Positions 56,981-62,002 of a DNA stretch of 64,000 bases are shown piece by piece. Position 1 is the stretch's first letter. Each line of letters begins with the position of its first letter. The notes beneath the pieces are model-generated. The model saw nothing but the letters and a program-made list of their open reading frames with translations, did not search any database and was not told the DNA's origin. The stretch covers positions 21,674 to 85,673 of the forward strand of contig JASMDC010000011.1 in the NCBI GenBank assembly GCA_030753015.1. Reading direction: 5' to 3'. Made by a program: the position numbers and the translations under genes. Source of the stretch: Candidatus Undinarchaeales archaeon (GTDB lineage: Archaea > SpSt-1190 > JASMDC01).

Positions 56981-57659
56981 GGTAGCTCGGCCGCTCGTGG
57001 TAGGGGATGGGGTCCTTCTCCCCGAGCTCCTCGAAAGCCCGGAGGCGCAGGGCGCACGAATCGCATGTGCCGCAGGCCTTGTCCTCCGCGCGGTAGCACG
57101 ACCATGTGAGGTGGAGCGGTGCATCGAGACGCAATCCCTCCCGGATGATCTGGGTCTTGGACATCTTGATGATGGGCGTCCTGATGACGATATTCGTCTC
57201 GGGGCGCGTGCCCAGCTCGATGACGCGGTTGAAGGCATCGTAGAACGCGGGACGGCAGTCGGGGTAGCCGGATGAATCCTCCTCGACGGCACCGATGAAC
57301 ACCGCCTCGGCACCCAGCACCTCTGCCCAGCTCACCGCCATTGAAAGGATGTTCGCGTTGCGGAAGGGCACGTAGGAGCTGGGAATACCGTCAGCCTCCA
57401 GGTCGGCGTCGGTCACCGTCAAGGATGAATCCGTGAGCGAGGACCCGCCGATGCGGGACAGATGGTCGGTGGCCACGACGAACCGCTCGCGGACACCCCA
57501 GTGGTCGGTGATGGCATCGAACGCCCGACGCTCGCGCTCGCTGGTGAGCTGACCGTAGGTGAGGTGGAGGAAGCACAGCTCGTAGCCCTGGTCACGGGCT
57601 ATGGCCGCCGTCACGCACGAGTCCATACCCCCGGAGAGGAGAATGACCGCCTTCGTCAT
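56970..57659 (-). CDS. queC: 7-cyano-7-deazaguanine synthase
   Basis: Internal ATG ([16 protein letters not shown]...) of track ORF 56970-58076. SGGMDS PP-loop and C-terminal Zn motif [18 protein letters not shown]. 229 aa. Confidence 0.9.
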
Positions 57660-57682
57660 GCCGGGACCTTTGCCCTGGGCCT

Positions 57683-57690
57683 TTATATAA
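57683..57690. promoter_or_regulatory. Palindromic TATA box TTATATAA centred in a 51-bp divergent intergenic region
   Basis: About 24-28 nt from both the queC ATG (57659) and the TPR gene GTG (57711). Confidence 0.55.
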
Positions 57691-57710
57691 TTGGCCGTCC
57701 GAACCGTGAC

Positions 57711-59063
57711 GTGGGCACCAAGAGCGTGTTCCTCCGTGATGGCAAGGAGCACTACCGCAAAGGGGAGTACGAGGAGGCCGCCCGGTTGCTGCGGACCGCC
57801 CTCCGCATCGAGCCTGATGCACCTGAGGCGCTCATCTACCTCGGTTTCGCCCTTGGGGAACTCGGGGACGAGAAGGGAGCGAAGCGGTGCTTCAAGCGCC
57901 TTCTCGAGTCCAATCCGGAGAACGAGGCGTACGATTACCTCGCCCTCTACTTCGCAGGCGAGGGGAAGTACACCCGCGCAGAGATGGCCTGTCGTAAGGC
58001 CATCGAGAAGAACCCCCGGGATTGCGTGGCCTGGAACAATCTCGCCATCTGGCTCGTGGAGGAGAACAAGCACCAAGAGGCAGTGATGTGCTCCCGGATG
58101 GCCCTCTCCATCGACGACGCGCGAGCCGAGTTCTGGCTCAACCTCGGTGTCGGCCTGGCATCCCTCGGGAAATGGCAGGATGCACGTGAGGCATTCGAGC
58201 GGTCGGTCGGGATGCAGCCCGCTCTCATCGAGGGATGGCTCGACCTTGGCCTCTGCCTGCTACGGTCGGGGGACGTAGACGGGGCGAGGGCCGCCTACCA
58301 CAAGGCCATTGAGGCCGATCCGAAGAGCGCCGATGCGCACTTCCACCTTGGCGCCCTCCACATGGAACGGCGGGAGCTCAAGGGTGCAGTCCAGCATTTC
58401 GAACGGGCCGTGGCCCTGGACGTGTCGTTCCGCGAGGCATGGCTGAACCTGGCCGTGTGCAGCGACGAGCTCGGGAAGCTCGACCGTGCCGTGGAGTGTG
58501 CCCAGATGGCCCTTGGGCTCGACGAGGAGGACCAACGCATGAAGAACCTCCTGGAGAGCCTGAAGGAAGCCGTTGACTTCCGACGGCGGCACGACCTGGT
58601 CGCGCCGGACGTGCTCGAGCTCATCAGGACCCATCTGGGCGAACGAGCACTGGCCGCGTTCCCGGTGCCGGACGATCCCGTTCCCATGGGCCGGTGGTTC
58701 TTCGTCATACCCCAGAAGGGGATGGGGGGAGATATAATCATCCCCCAGAGCAAGGGCGAGCTCTCGGCCGTGCTCGATGGCACGGTGGAAGTGGAGTTCC
58801 TCTGGTGCTGTGGCCTGCGCAGCACGCTGACCCGGGAGTACCTCCATCTCTACGACCTCCGCACTCGGGGGCGAGCGGTCTTCATCTGTCTTGTCTGGCA
58901 GGACATCTACGATCCTGCGGCAGGGCCCATTGCCGTCCGCGCCGAGATCGAGCGCACGCTCGATCTGCTAGAGAAAGATGCCGAGGGTGACATAGTCCTC
59001 GTCAACCACCTGGGCGATGTGTGGACGCGTATCGGAGACGGGTCCCCGAAGAAGCAGGGGTGA
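57711..59063 (+). CDS. TPR-repeat protein with an uncharacterised C-terminal domain
   Basis: Frame of track ORF 57462-59063. GTG at 57711 is the first in-frame start after the TATA. About 8 TPR units ([25 protein letters not shown]...), then about 150 aa with no recognised motif. Confidence 0.75.
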
Positions 59064-59604
59064 GCCGGTCCTGATGTGTCCGGGGATTATCTAGAATGTG
59101 GTCAGATCTTCATCAGTAAAATGAGTGGAAGGTTCGACCTCCGGGTGTTCGTTCTCGTCGCTCGTGTAGTGTCGTAGGGTTGTGGAATCAATTGGCCGTT
59201 GGATGTTCATTGGGCCTGGTACTAGTGAGAGCATTTCGCATCCCTCCATAGATCCATTTGTTTCGTTTTTCTTCTATGCGCGCCCTTTCGGGCGAGCGGT
59301 GGCCACGAGTCATGGTCGCCTTAAAAGGGTTGTCTTTCCGTCTGTCTTTTGACCGCACACCTTATGTAGTATCGTAGGCGGTGTGCCGGGGATTACGAAA
59401 TCCGTAACCGAGATACAGATGCTCTACGAGTAGTGCTGATGATCGTGATTTATTAATGTATAATACGGACCGAACAGCATCTATGCTGACGGTCCTGCTG
59501 GGAAGAAAGCTCTCTCCGGGCGGGATAAGTTAGGAAAAAGGGGGGAACGGCCCCGCCACGATGACGGAGCCGTTGGGGGACGGGGTACGGATAAAAAAGT
59601 AGGA

Positions 59605-59799
59605 TCAGTGATACGTTTCCTCCTGATTGTACGGGGTGTCCTTGTGGTCCTGCTCCCCGTACGTCGGATGCTCAAGCTGCTCGTTCCTGAATATATCGAG
59701 GTCCCCAAAACCCGGATCGAGTTCCGGCCGGGGCTCGGTGCCCAGCTCACCATGGGTGCGCTGGTACGCCTCGAACATTTCAGGATCGATGATGAGCAT
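59605..59799 (-). CDS. Small acidic protein, unrecognised family (paralogue A)
   Basis: 64 codons from the ATG at 59799 (track ORF 59605-59808 starts at an upstream GTG). GGTGA lies 5 nt upstream. MLIIDPEMFEAYQRTHGELGTEPRPELDPGFG is shared with paralogue B. Confidence 0.65.
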   Translation of the reverse strand: MLIIDPEMFEAYQRTHGELGTEPRPELDPGFGDLDIFRNEQLEHPTYGEQDHKDTPYNQEETYH

Positions 59800-59876
59800 C
59801 GCGTTCACCTTTTTTTTCGGACGGTTCTCACTCCATTGTTGGCCGGTTTATAAGGTTTTCCTTTGCCTGTGAGGCT

Positions 59877-59912
59877 AAATCGCACGAATATAGCTTAATT
59901 CGTCAAATTAAG
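59877..59912. promoter_or_regulatory. Conserved 24-mer AAATCGCACGAATATAGCTTAATT running into inverted repeat CTTAATT-N5-AATTAAG (copy A)
   Basis: The 24-mer is identical at 60384-60407. Located about 80-110 nt upstream of the small ORF. Confidence 0.55.
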
Positions 59913-60055
59913 TAATAATAAGGGTTATTAGCCGTGCGTTCAGACCGCACATTTATGTGATACGACCTGCCATTGGAACGGTCCCTCCTAACGCCGCTTT
60001 AACACATCGCCGTGAGATACAGCTCACACATGGGGATGATAGGGAAAAAGGGGGT

Positions 60056-60084
60056 ATCGATCCCGCCGGAGAGGCGGGATCGAT
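60056..60084 (-). terminator. Hairpin ATCGATCCCGCC-loop-GGCGGGATCGAT followed (minus strand) by T5
   Basis: Perfect 12-bp stem downstream of the small ORF at 60117-60308. An oligo-T also directly follows the stop codon. Confidence 0.6.
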
Positions 60085-60116
60085 GGGGGGACGGGGTACG
60101 GAAAAAAGAATGATAT

Positions 60117-60308
60117 CTAATATTTGTCGAGGTCCTCTTCGGGCTGGTAGACAGGCTCCCAGTAACCCTTGACGACGTAGTCGTTCTCGGACCGGTCGAA
60201 GGGATTGTAGTTACCGAAGCCCATGTCCAGGATGGTGTTAGGCTCGGCGCCTACTACCCCATGGCTTGCCTGATAGGCATCGTACATTTCCGGATCGATG
60301 ATGATCAT
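60117..60308 (-). CDS. Small acidic protein, unrecognised family (paralogue B)
   Basis: 63 codons from the ATG at 60308 (inside track ORF 60117-60392). AGGTGA lies 5 nt upstream. Sequence begins MIIIDPEMYDAYQASHGVVGAEPNTILDMGFG. Confidence 0.65.
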   Translation of the reverse strand: MIIIDPEMYDAYQASHGVVGAEPNTILDMGFGNYNPFDRSENDYVVKGYWEPVYQPEEDLDKY

Positions 60309-60383
60309 GATTGTCACCTGCTTTATTACCAAGAGCGCCCCATCGAATACCTGTTTATAAACTTTACTATCGCCTGTGCGCCC

Positions 60384-60419
60384 AAATCGCACGAATATAG
60401 CTTAATTAACTAAATTAAG
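60384..60419. promoter_or_regulatory. Conserved 24-mer plus CTTAATT-N5-AATTAAG inverted repeat (copy B)
   Basis: Identical 24-mer to 59877-59900. Same position relative to its small ORF. Confidence 0.55.
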
Positions 60420-60655
60420 CCTTATTAAGCCTTATTAAGATTCTTGGCTTTCTAATTCCCTCTGCAGGGCTGGTTCAGTACATTTCTCCCCCCTATAGGA
60501 CCTCGTTCGGACCGCATACTTCGATGTACTACATAATGTGCTCGACTATAGGGCATGTCTTCAGTACAGCGATTATTACGTGCTTGATGGGGTTCCCAAC
60601 CGCTCTGACTACGTGAAAATAGCGACGAGTCCTGCGACTGTTAAATAGGTGTTAA

Positions 60656-60677
60656 CCGGGGGGGAGGTCCCCCCCGG
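60656..60677. terminator. GC homopolymer hairpin CCGGGGGGG-AGGT-CCCCCCCGG immediately 3' of tRNA-Arg
   Basis: Perfect 9-bp stem that starts 2 nt after the tRNA discriminator base on the minus strand. Confidence 0.5.
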
Positions 60678-60678
60678 A

Positions 60679-60753
60679 TGGGCCCGGCAGGATTCGAACC
60701 CGCGATCTGAGGCTCCGCAAGCCCCCATGCTATCCAGACTACACCACGAGCCC
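60679..60753 (-). tRNA. tRNA-Arg (anticodon GCG)
   Basis: Hand-folded 75-nt cloverleaf: 7-bp acceptor stem, GG in the D-loop, anticodon loop TTGCGGA, 5-nt variable loop, T-loop TTCGAAT, discriminator A. No intron and no encoded CCA. Confidence 0.9.
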
Positions 60754-60867
60754 ATAAAGGCTTGACTCCCGAGTGGGCAAATCTTTATTTATCTTCCCTC
60801 GCTGCCCGTCCAAGCCGAAACCCTTAAAAGAGCTATCCACTCCACAGTCGCCTACGAGTGATATAAC

Positions 60868-60975
60868 TTGTCGAAAACATCCCATCCTTGGAAGAAGCGG
60901 GTCGGCAAGAAGAGCCGCTGGAAGTGGCGCAAGAAGCGGCGCCGAAAGATGCAGCGCAAGGCGCGCCGCATCTAG
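60868..60975 (+). CDS. rpl41e: 50S ribosomal protein eL41 (35 codons, below the ORF-track length cutoff)
   Basis: A TTG-start ORF translates to MSKTSHPWKKRVGKKSRWKWRKKRRRKMQRKARRI. The W-K-K...R-W-K-W-x-K-K-R-x-R-R core matches my recollection of archaeal L41e. GAGTGAT SD-like sequence upstream and a hairpin plus TTTGTT downstream. Confidence 0.7.
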   Translation: MSKTSHPWKKRVGKKSRWKWRKKRRRKMQRKARRI

Positions 60976-61029: not shown

Positions 61030-61258
61030 GGCGCCAGTGGCTCACTACAATATACACACATCTGTACTTCTAGGTAGGATGTAGTTGTCTGCTCACATGT
61101 TGGCGTAGATTAGACCTCTGAATCCAGTTGACCCAAACTGAGATCTATAGATTAGACAATCAGTCAAGTCCCCAGGTCCGCAACGGGAGCGCACGTCGAA
61201 AGGAAAACTATAAAAGACAGCATTCGGGCCTCCGCGCTCCATACGCAGAGTGATTATC

Positions 61259-62002
61259 ATGGAAGACATCATCGAAACGGAATCTATCGAGATCTACGAT
61301 GTACCTGGCCTGAACACCTATGTGGTGGCGGAGCCGCGGATGGAGCCCCCCGGATACTTCAGCAAGGGGCCGACCTACAAGGACGTCCTTCACTCACTCA
61401 ACGACGCGCTCGAACAGGATGACGCCTCCTATACCCTCTACACCGACTCAGGATCCACCTACGATATCAACGAACTACGCACTTTGTCCAAGAACACACA
61501 GGATTCCGCTGTAGCTAAGATAAAGAGCGATGCTTTCGGAGCTGCCATCTGGGGCTACTTCCTTTACCCGTATGGTCTGGTCGTCTCCGCCATGGACGCC
61601 ATCGACGCGTTCAAGTCCTACAAGCTCATGAAGGAGGGTCAGCGCCTTGAGAAGAACATCGTCAAGGGCCATGTCGAGAAGTCCGAGGGCCTCTCCGAGC
61701 TCCACGAGCTGTACAACGAGCTCGACATACCCAGTATCGATGCTGAAATCCAGCGGGAGATCGGCCAGCTCAGCTTCTTCCGAAAGATCGTCCCACCCAA
61801 GGATGTCAGGGAGCGGATCATGGACAAGGTGGCCGAGAAGTCCCTTGCCTACCAAACGCTCAACATCCGCGCTCGCGAAATTGCTGAGGAGCTGGATGAC
61901 GAGAACTTCCTTTACGTAGCGCAGGCCTACGAAAAGGCCGCTCATGGCCACCACTTCCCCATGATCGGCGTGCAACGGGAGCCCGAACAGGAAGAGCAGT
62001 AA
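61259..62002 (+). CDS. Hypothetical protein
   Basis: Frame of track ORF 61250-62002 (GTG). The ATG at 61259 is preceded by GTGAT. TATA-like CTATAAAAG lies about 45 nt upstream. One central hydrophobic segment. No motif recognised. Confidence 0.55.
   Translation: MEDIIETESIEIYDVPGLNTYVVAEPRMEPPGYFSKGPTYKDVLHSLNDALEQDDASYTLYTDSGSTYDINELRTLSKNTQDSAVAKIKSDAFGAAIWGYFLYPYGLVVSAMDAIDAFKSYKLMKEGQRLEKNIVKGHVEKSEGLSELHELYNELDIPSIDAEIQREIGQLSFFRKIVPPKDVRERIMDKVAEKSLAYQTLNIRAREIAEELDDENFLYVAQAYEKAAHGHHFPMIGVQREPEQEEQ

Follow-up and report, generated by a model that had tools for sequence, protein, structure and literature searches.

Layout of the locus

We analyzed a stretch of 64,000 nucleotides (nt) from a Candidatus Undinarchaeales archaeon (contig JASMDC010000011.1), which we call the window, and we describe here the gap at 59091-60677 between the gene for a TPR protein, recognized by a profile match, and the gene for tRNA-Arg(GCG), which bounds the gap on the other side (60676-60754). 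The gap holds three small-protein genes on the minus strand, which we call A, B and C. A and B each sit in a tandemly repeated unit with its own upstream elements, open reading frame (ORF) and downstream region, and these two units are our main subject. A first-pass annotation of the window had read the region as AT-rich and without a long ORF, and had described a self-contained unit of promoter, Shine-Dalgarno (SD) sequence, small ORF and terminator, tandemly duplicated with a period of about 510 bp. The GC content is 0.44-0.58 inside the gap vs. 0.62-0.68 in the flanks. Repeat analysis and pairwise DNA alignment put the A/B repeat period at 507-511 nt, spanning the ORF with its upstream and downstream regions, and the self-contained unit is borne out by sequence conservation. 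There is indeed no long ORF, but the small gene C had been overlooked.

ORF A (59605-59799, minus strand) codes for a protein of 64 amino acids (aa) with an isoelectric point (pI) of 4.31. It is of what we call the A-type, in which the N-terminal 24-37 aa are conserved and the acidic tail evolves fast. ORF B (60117-60308, minus strand) codes for 63 aa with a pI of 4.05 and is of the B-type, which is conserved over its whole length and has the core LDMGFGNYNPFD. ORF C (59091-59234, minus strand) is unrelated in sequence to A and B. It codes for an acidic protein of 47 aa, MLSLVPGPMNIQRPID...DEDLTTF, and has GGAGG 9 nt before its ATG.

For comparison we took relatives from public assemblies: L001 (a Tara Oceans contig), L025 (CAZFHY010000012.1, from a Candidatus Undinarchaeota archaeon that is a GTDB species representative), L090-L099, and two distant loci, L003 and L004. 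The order GluRS, 250-aa ORF, L41e-like ORF, tRNA-Arg, B, A, (C), TPR, QueC is kept in L025, L090-L096 and L001, and at least seven environmental contigs besides the window have orthologues in this arrangement. The first-pass annotation had raised the possibility that relatives might have the TPR gene and tRNA-Arg adjacent without the insert; this turned out otherwise, as the cassette is at the same position in every relative recovered, including the L004 lineage, where the TPR orthologue is 52% identical. Tandem B-type and A-type copies are also present in both distant loci, whose contigs are higher in GC. In L004 a B-type gene is followed by an A-type gene, and the unit is convergent to, and abuts, the orthologous TPR gene. 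L003 (1-1204) has three units in tandem: a partial B-type, then another B-type and last an A-type. The 3' hairpins of its two B-types are identical. Copy number therefore differs between lineages.

It had been proposed that the duplicated unit could be a mobile-element relic, or a small toxin/antitoxin-like or anti-defence gene. A remnant of an element at tRNA-Arg that carried such a gene would account for a cassette that adjoins a tRNA gene, has GC below its flanks and encodes small acidic products, which many anti-restriction proteins are. However, all relatives recovered have the same position and order, and the L004 lineage is no exception. None of the neighbors (GluRS, the 250-aa ORF, the TPR protein, QueC and an RNase-H-like protein) is an integrase, and there is no direct repeat derived from the 3' segment of the tRNA, the closest candidate being 15 nt long and 80% identical. 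Scanning JGI metagenome contigs and IMG/VR viral contigs with a protein pattern gave no relatives, and neither did tblastn against GenBank phages and plasmids. We found no Pfam match and no significant PADLOC or PHROG match (best E-values 0.03-0.07, for single members), and A and B, as paralogues with separate promoters and terminators, do not have the layout of a toxin plus its antidote. We give hardly any credence to a mobile remnant of this kind. The other nature that had been proposed, a regulatory peptide, may still apply.

A, B and C as protein-coding genes

The claim that the ORFs at 59605-59799 and 60117-60308 are paralogous is confirmed, with 46% identity over 48 aa (the first 48 residues; E=2e-15). 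Over the first 37 codons of A and B, 16.2 of 23.5 synonymous sites differ (69%) vs. 22.8 of 87.5 non-synonymous sites (26%), for a ratio of non-synonymous to synonymous divergence (dN/dS) of about 0.17. The first-pass annotation had held that mainly non-synonymous or frameshifting differences between the copies would point to decaying repeats; in the conserved half the copies are separated mainly by synonymous changes.

Homologues also exist elsewhere and are under purifying selection. We computed orthologue dN/dS across four lineages with a DNA identity of 83-88%, and obtained 0.11-0.24 for A and 0.02-0.31 for B, with 0.12 for the TPR gene as a control. For B, the window and L025 differ by 13 synonymous and 2 non-synonymous changes. 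Gene C has orthologues in L025 and L094 with a dN/dS of 0.19-0.43 and is called as a gene in L094-L097; it is not present in the distant locus L004, where A adjoins the TPR gene directly. The exact A protein was found in 35 blocks of a public collection, and no frameshift and no stop is seen in any of the more than 20 protein variants recorded. On this comparative evidence, we conclude that A, B and C are real, independent protein-coding genes under purifying selection and that A and B are tandem paralogues.

We weighed this against a non-coding tandem repeat, in which the ORFs would be spurious and the conservation would reflect a function of the DNA or RNA only. The cis elements are better conserved than the ORF tails, as such a repeat would have it, and the closest pair, the window and L001, shows 5 non-synonymous vs. 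2 synonymous changes, which are too few to inform. In every larger comparison, though, synonymous changes are in excess. The frame, start, SD spacing and length are kept in all lineages while A-type and B-type genes have a nucleotide identity of only about 40-50%, and there is the lack of any frameshift or stop among the variants. A purely non-coding repeat is, in our judgment, close to negligible as an explanation.

Public gene calls (P0002, P0012, P0016 and P0018) often give B as a protein of 91 aa that starts at a GTG at 60392, with an extension at 60309-60392 (minus strand). This start is inside palindrome P3 and upstream of the TATA box (both described in the next section), so the extension is an annotation artefact. 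Tryptic peptides predicted from the sequence include SENDYVVK and GYWEPVYQPEEDLDK (B).

Putative upstream control elements

Along the minus strand, the elements upstream of A and B are, in order, a distal GCGGTC box, three palindromes (P1, P2 and P3), 6-7 nt, a stretch resembling a B recognition element (BRE) joined to the TATA box TTATAAAC, about 45 nt, and the ATG with its GGTGA. We did phylogenetic footprinting with five genomes and found the promoter, the leader and the 3' module (discussed in a later section) to be 93-100% invariant, compared with 23-60% for the spacers. Since the synonymous divergence is 0.16-0.58, these cis elements are conserved more strongly than synonymous sites. The same upstream and 3' elements are recognizable in L003 and L004. 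Their promoter and operator roles we infer from position and conservation.

In unit B (all coordinates in this section are on the minus strand), the distal box TATGCGGTC is at 60510-60518, within a 17-mer (60510-60526) that is invariant in the five related genomes. A similar box is upstream of A and of C, which agrees with the three occurrences reported earlier. The P1 region TAATAAGGCTTAATAAGGCTTAAT (60414-60437) is of the type TAATAA-N3-TTATTA, and P2, CTTAATT-N5-AATTAAG (60401-60419), is conserved in L025, L004 and others. P3, GTGCG-N7-CGCAC (60376-60392), is 6-7 nt upstream of the BRE and is the best conserved operator-like site; in the distant locus L003 it is a perfect 17-bp palindrome, GTGCGATTTAATCGCAC. 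The purine-rich BRE-like stretch and TATA box, TAGTAAAGTTTATAAAC (60353-60369), fit the archaeal promoter consensus, and the TTATAAAC part (60353-60360) is invariant. The SD sequence GGTGA (60314-60318) is 5 nt before the ATG and is part of an invariant block at 60306-60322.

Unit A has a distal palindrome, GTGCGGTCTGAACGCAC (59934-59950), which has the form GTGCG-N7-CGCAC, includes the GCGGTC box, and is one of two exact sites of this form in the 64 kb. It is followed by P1, TAATAACCCTTATTA (59916-59930), by P2, CTTAATT-N5-AATTAAG (59894-59912), and by P3, GTGCGATTTAGCCTCAC (59869-59885), which has one mismatch to a palindrome and overlaps an invariant block at 59870-59891. The BRE-like stretch and TATA box, AGGAAAACCTTATAAAC (59846-59862), are in an invariant block at 59839-59868, with the TATA box TTATAAAC itself at 59846-59853. 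The SD sequence GGTGA (59805-59809) is again 5 nt before the ATG, in an invariant block at 59795-59831. The TTTATAA upstream of each ORF and the GGTGA at exactly 5 nt before both ATGs, as first reported, are therefore where they were said to be. Gene C has its own putative promoter block at 59319-59358, invariant at 59319-59348, with the box GTGCGGTC, an invariant AAGACAGACGGAAAGACAA and a TATA-like CCTTTTAAGG.

These elements are specific to the cassette within the window. CTTAATT-N5-AATTAAG has 2 matches in the 64 kb and 0 in shuffles, and the identical 24-mer that had been seen to run into it is present in both units and has 0 matches in shuffles. A 20-mer occurs exactly twice in the 64 kb and not at all in shuffles, and sites of the TAATAA-N3-TTATTA type are essentially confined to units A and B. 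At the start codon, (A/G)GGTGA or AAGGTG precedes the ATG in 8 of 8 aligned copies.

Most copies have a further conserved ATG about 15 nt downstream of the TATA box (59815-59820 and 60323-60340). In the window it opens a mini-ORF of 2-5 codons, in L003 it extends the B-type ORF in frame at the N-terminus, and in L004 it opens an out-of-frame ORF that begins with MLIDRP. This ATG probably sits at or before the transcription start.

The 3' module

Past the stop codon, each unit has a U6 after 6-9 nt, a C-rich box CCGUACCCCGUCCCCC, a hairpin of 12-14 bp, a short run of C and a U5. We call this the 3' module. The oligo-T, C-rich box, hairpin and T5 that had been noted 3' of each ORF could all be located, including the 12-bp perfect stem at 60056-60084. 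In unit B, on the minus strand, the proximal T6 (U6 in the RNA) is at 60102-60107, 9 nt past the stop codon, followed by the invariant C-rich box CCGTACCCCGTCCCCC (60086-60101), the hairpin (60056-60084; 12-bp stem with a 5-nt loop, z = -6.7) and the distal T5 (60045-60049). The corresponding minus-strand elements of unit A are the T6 at 59593-59598, the box at 59575-59590 (an invariant 16-mer), the hairpin at 59546-59574 and the T5 at 59535-59539. The unit A hairpin has a 13-bp stem with a 3-nt loop, and the stem includes one G-U pair, a wobble that pairs on the minus-strand RNA only.

No other element is as strongly conserved as the box. The 11 copies compared, which come from 5 loci, all have it in identical form, as do all the further copies that we extracted from relatives, and it is unchanged where the ORF tails and the hairpin sequence differ. 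The hairpin behaves in another way: its sequence varies between A, B and the distant lineages, but the pairing is kept, and in unit B the changes in relatives are confined to the loop or are compensatory. Compensatory double changes are found in 4 of 12 pairs, and 0 of 500 shuffles reach the observed covariation score. In the hairpin alignment 95% of the cells pair, vs. 30-50% with the partners slid. In a custom scan for hairpins of 8 bp or more with a T5 after them, the window had two sites, both of them here, vs. 0-2 in shuffles.

Several G-U pairs and the fold energies indicate that the hairpin belongs to the sense (minus-strand) RNA. We rejected the plus-strand RNA, on which the G-U pairs turn into C-A mismatches and copy A has a z of only -0.7. 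We also rejected the idea that the box is coding on the opposite strand, where the lineages do not share a frame. The 3' module belongs to the upstream ORF and not to a downstream promoter: the last copy in L004 directly meets the end of the convergent TPR gene.

The module appears to be used by these genes only. Among 185,579 species genomes, one alone (L025, with the same cassette) has the exact 17-mer of the box at two places, 511 nt from each other. The remaining matches (37 in genomes, 47 in metagenomes) are single and in unrelated, mostly bacterial contexts without the ORF family or the setting of U-tract and hairpin; by their context, the 47 metagenome matches are chance. An Rfam covariance-model search of the region found tRNA-Arg alone, with every other match at E>2. 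As far as these comparisons reach, what is new here is a conserved 3' module, made of an invariant C-rich box and a covarying hairpin between two U-tracts, that is used by these genes only and is without an Rfam counterpart.

Term-seq in four archaeal species found U-rich terminators without a preceding hairpin, and efficient binding by the termination factor aCPSF1 requires two U-tracts (PMC8716108). Because the archaeal terminators mapped so far are U-tracts without hairpins, a conserved hairpin terminator would be atypical. In having a G+C-rich hairpin of 12-14 bp followed by U5, and a stem kept by compensatory changes, the 3' end of A and B is like a bacterial intrinsic terminator. It is unlike one in that the U5 begins 6 nt past the stem, with a 6-nt run of C between them, and in that the stem comes after an invariant 16-nt box and another U-tract. 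A scan with a sigma-70 promoter/terminator model, which is unsuited to an archaeon, missed the hairpins.

We also considered an integron attC site and rejected it. The hairpin is flanked by runs of C on both sides and has no complementary RYYYAAC/GTTRRRY core sites, there is no integrase nearby, and the units carry their own promoters. Separately, there is a further conserved motif, C(C)CGCCCGGAG(A/G)AGC(TTTCTTCC), which comes after the distal U-tract of unit A in the window (59501-59524, minus strand) and after unit B in L004 (about 463-490) and L003 (about 127-150). It repeats the 5' arm of the hairpin, CCCGCC.

The invariance of the box can also be read as the mark of a dual-function RNA. 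In that case the main selected product would be a small RNA derived from the 3' untranslated region (UTR), whose C-rich seed pairs with G-rich ribosome-binding regions of other mRNAs, and the ORF would be the second function. Such pairing is known from bacteria, where the C-rich motifs of RsaE/RoxS pair with G-rich ribosome-binding regions, and RsaE/RoxS and CpxQ are small RNAs that derive from a 3' UTR or have a C-rich seed. The 3' module of A and B likewise has a conserved unpaired C-rich stretch just upstream of a terminator hairpin at the mRNA end. The box outlasts changes in the hairpin sequence and in the ORF tails, is followed at once by a terminator-like hairpin and U-tract, has U-tracts on both sides, and is confined to these cassettes. 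It also has no consistent pairing partner within its own mRNA; in whole-mRNA folding the partner differs from copy to copy, so we rejected a conserved long-range intramolecular pairing. The comparison has its differences too. The host is an archaeon, RsaE/RoxS are bacterial, and no Rfam family matched. In a duplex scan of the 64-kb window for targets, the box did not outscore its shuffled versions. The box may just as well be bound by a protein. We consider an RNA as the main product unlikely, but it is the most interesting of the alternatives and agrees with all the observations.

An orphan family and its predicted structure

The first-pass annotation did not recognize the protein family, and wider searches agree with it: at E<=0.01, A and B have no match in Pfam, NCBIfam, PHROGs, PADLOC or the sequences of the PDB. 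An exhaustive HMMER search of 1.84 billion representative proteins returned four clusters, all of this small family. Two of them are the A and B orthologues, and the other two (P0003 and P0004, from contigs L003 and L004) match in residues 1-25 only. Word-indexed protein searches with A, B and the TPR protein's C-terminal domain gave clusters of self or near-self, or nothing, and a full-text literature search with the family motifs gave no matching paper. Within the libraries searched, the A/B family is an orphan that matches no described family, and it is restricted to a narrow clade of uncultivated archaea.

Across the family the invariant or nearly invariant pattern is M-x-I-(I/V)-D-P-E-(M/L)-(Y/F)-x-x-Y-Q-x-x-x-G-x-x-G-x-E-P, and the N-terminal 24 residues alone are common to all members. 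B-types, which have orthologues in L003 and L004, are conserved end to end, including L-D-M-G-F-G-x-(Y/F)-x-P-F, whereas A-type tails are hypervariable and acidic. Two AlphaFold runs with shallow alignments gave a predicted local distance difference test (pLDDT) score of about 52, with a helix at residues 6-15 as the sole structured element. We considered a ribbon-helix-helix DNA binder that regulates its own promoter via the palindromes, and rejected it. The N-terminal strand and helix are similar, but the proteins lack a second helix and have a pI of about 4.

A conserved N-terminal part, a variable C-terminal part and tandem multiplication are also features of precursor arrays for ribosomally synthesized and post-translationally modified peptides (RiPPs). 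Read this way, the N-terminus would be a leader for an enzyme and the C-terminus a variable core. The family does have residues 1-24 as its only common part, hypervariable A-type tails and 2-3 tandem copies, and the neighboring TPR protein has an uncharacterized C-terminal domain of 170 aa. It differs from RiPP arrays in that there is no recognizable modifying enzyme, protease or transporter among the conserved neighbors (GluRS, QueC, the RNase-H-like protein and the TPR protein), and the tails have no Cys and no Ser/Thr-rich core. In the B-type, strong purifying selection acts on the would-be core along its entire length (dN/dS as low as 0.02), and each copy has its own elaborate promoter. 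This makes RiPP-like precursors a very unlikely reading.

The B-type segment also resembles part of the eukaryotic ribosomal stalk. The C-terminal tail of the stalk P-proteins is SDDDMGFGLFD, and its GFGL motif was not found in archaeal P1 (PMC4379515). The B-type L-D-M-G-F-G-N-Y/F-x-P-F-D has DMGFG in common with it, followed by an aromatic residue and Asp, and both are acidic and flexible. Unlike the stalk tail, the B-type motif is internal (residues 28-38 of B), it is missing in P0003, P0004 and the distant A-types, and it has no PDB profile match. The five-residue resemblance may be chance.

Interpretation

In kind, and judging from the comparisons above, A and B are ordinary lineage-specific small-protein genes made by tandem duplication. 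As for what they do, we think it probable that they encode small acidic binding proteins that are specific to the lineage and regulated together, with a regulatory 3' UTR and a terminator dedicated to them. Each unit would be its own transcription unit, with a BRE/TATA promoter, a short leader with GGTGA, an ORF of 63-64 codons and a composite 3' end. One dedicated DNA-binding regulator would bind the palindromes and switch A and B together. The 3' module would be a two-step terminator, in which a stop at U6 gives a short mRNA and read-through to U5 gives a long form whose 3' end is protected by the hairpin. The long form would expose the unpaired C-rich box to a sequence-specific trans factor, which could be protein or RNA.

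Given their strong acidity, their mostly unstructured models and an N-terminus that resembles a docking motif, we expect the proteins to bind a partner protein rather than to be enzymes or DNA binders. The candidate docking motif is the N-terminal strand plus helix, M-I-I-I-D-P-E-M-Y-x-A-Y-Q..G..G-E-P. A candidate for the partner is the always-adjacent TPR protein with its uncharacterized C-terminal domain of about 170 residues.

Archaeal small proteins of less than 70 aa from independent small ORFs have been catalogued in Methanosarcina mazei and Haloferax volcanii. A and B are like these in size, in having a stand-alone transcription unit with a promoter and SD sequence, in being lineage-restricted and in likely binding a larger protein. 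They are unlike them in being tandem paralogues without sequence kinship to described families, and in having an unusually elaborate conserved promoter and 3' UTR.

Several results weigh against small acidic binding proteins with a regulated 3' UTR. We identified no gene for a regulator of the palindromes in A and B, and the duplex scan offered no target for the box. The adjacency to the TPR gene is convergent, the two are not co-transcribed, and it may be plain synteny. A low-confidence AlphaFold model from a shallow alignment is no proof of disorder, and the constraint on the B-type covers the full length, which may mean that it folds or binds along its whole length. The changes that separate the window from L001 also lean the wrong way, though they are too few to inform.

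A more far-reaching version is a dual-output module, which we consider rather improbable. One transcription factor would switch on two or three acidic proteins, and each transcript would release a 3' RNA of box and hairpin, whose 16-nt C-rich seed would target, in trans, either G-rich ribosome-binding regions or a dedicated RNA-binding protein. It is more speculative still to add that the DMGFG..F.D segment of the B-type mimics the ribosomal-stalk tail and titrates translation GTPases. If such a module did exist, it would be an archaeal counterpart of the bacterial 3'-UTR-derived small RNAs, tied to an orphan protein family, in a genome-reduced archaeon labelled as DPANN.

Small proteins and 3'-UTR regulation are a little-charted part of archaeal biology, and for uncultivated lineages nearly nothing is known of them. 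Here a complete small-gene unit, with operator-like palindromes, promoter, leader, ORF and structured 3' module, could be defined by comparison of genomes alone, and the locus, being compact and sampled many times, lends itself to use as a test case. The invariant box presumably has some sequence-specific reader. If it is a trans-acting seed or the site of an RNA-binding protein, it gives a handle on post-transcriptional control in this group. If it is neither, there is still the description of a new orphan small-protein family and the correction of the public mis-call of B.

Neighboring features

The TPR protein's C-terminal domain (about 170 aa, 58554-59060, plus strand) is kept in the 52% identical orthologue of L004, with the motifs EHLHLYDLR and DP.AGP. 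It has no Pfam or PDB match (best E-values 0.07-0.2). The true start of the TPR gene (57462-59063) is uncertain because its 533-aa ORF overlaps QueC on the opposite strand.

At the other end of the gap, a perfect G/C palindrome, CCGGGGGGGACCTCCCCCCCGG (60656-60677), adjoins the 3' end of tRNA-Arg(GCG) and is unchanged across five related genomes. Possibly it is a terminator or a structure of the tRNA 3' end. Beyond the tRNA there is an extremely basic ORF of 35 aa, MSKTSHPWKKRVGKKSRWKWRKKRRRKMQRKARRI (60868-60975, plus strand), which is identical in L001 and has no Pfam match at E<=1; we take it to resemble ribosomal protein L41e. A 250-aa acidic ORF (61250-62002, plus strand) follows in a stretch of lower GC (about 0.55). 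It is without a Pfam match. All relatives have it in synteny, with gene calls of 245-272 aa.

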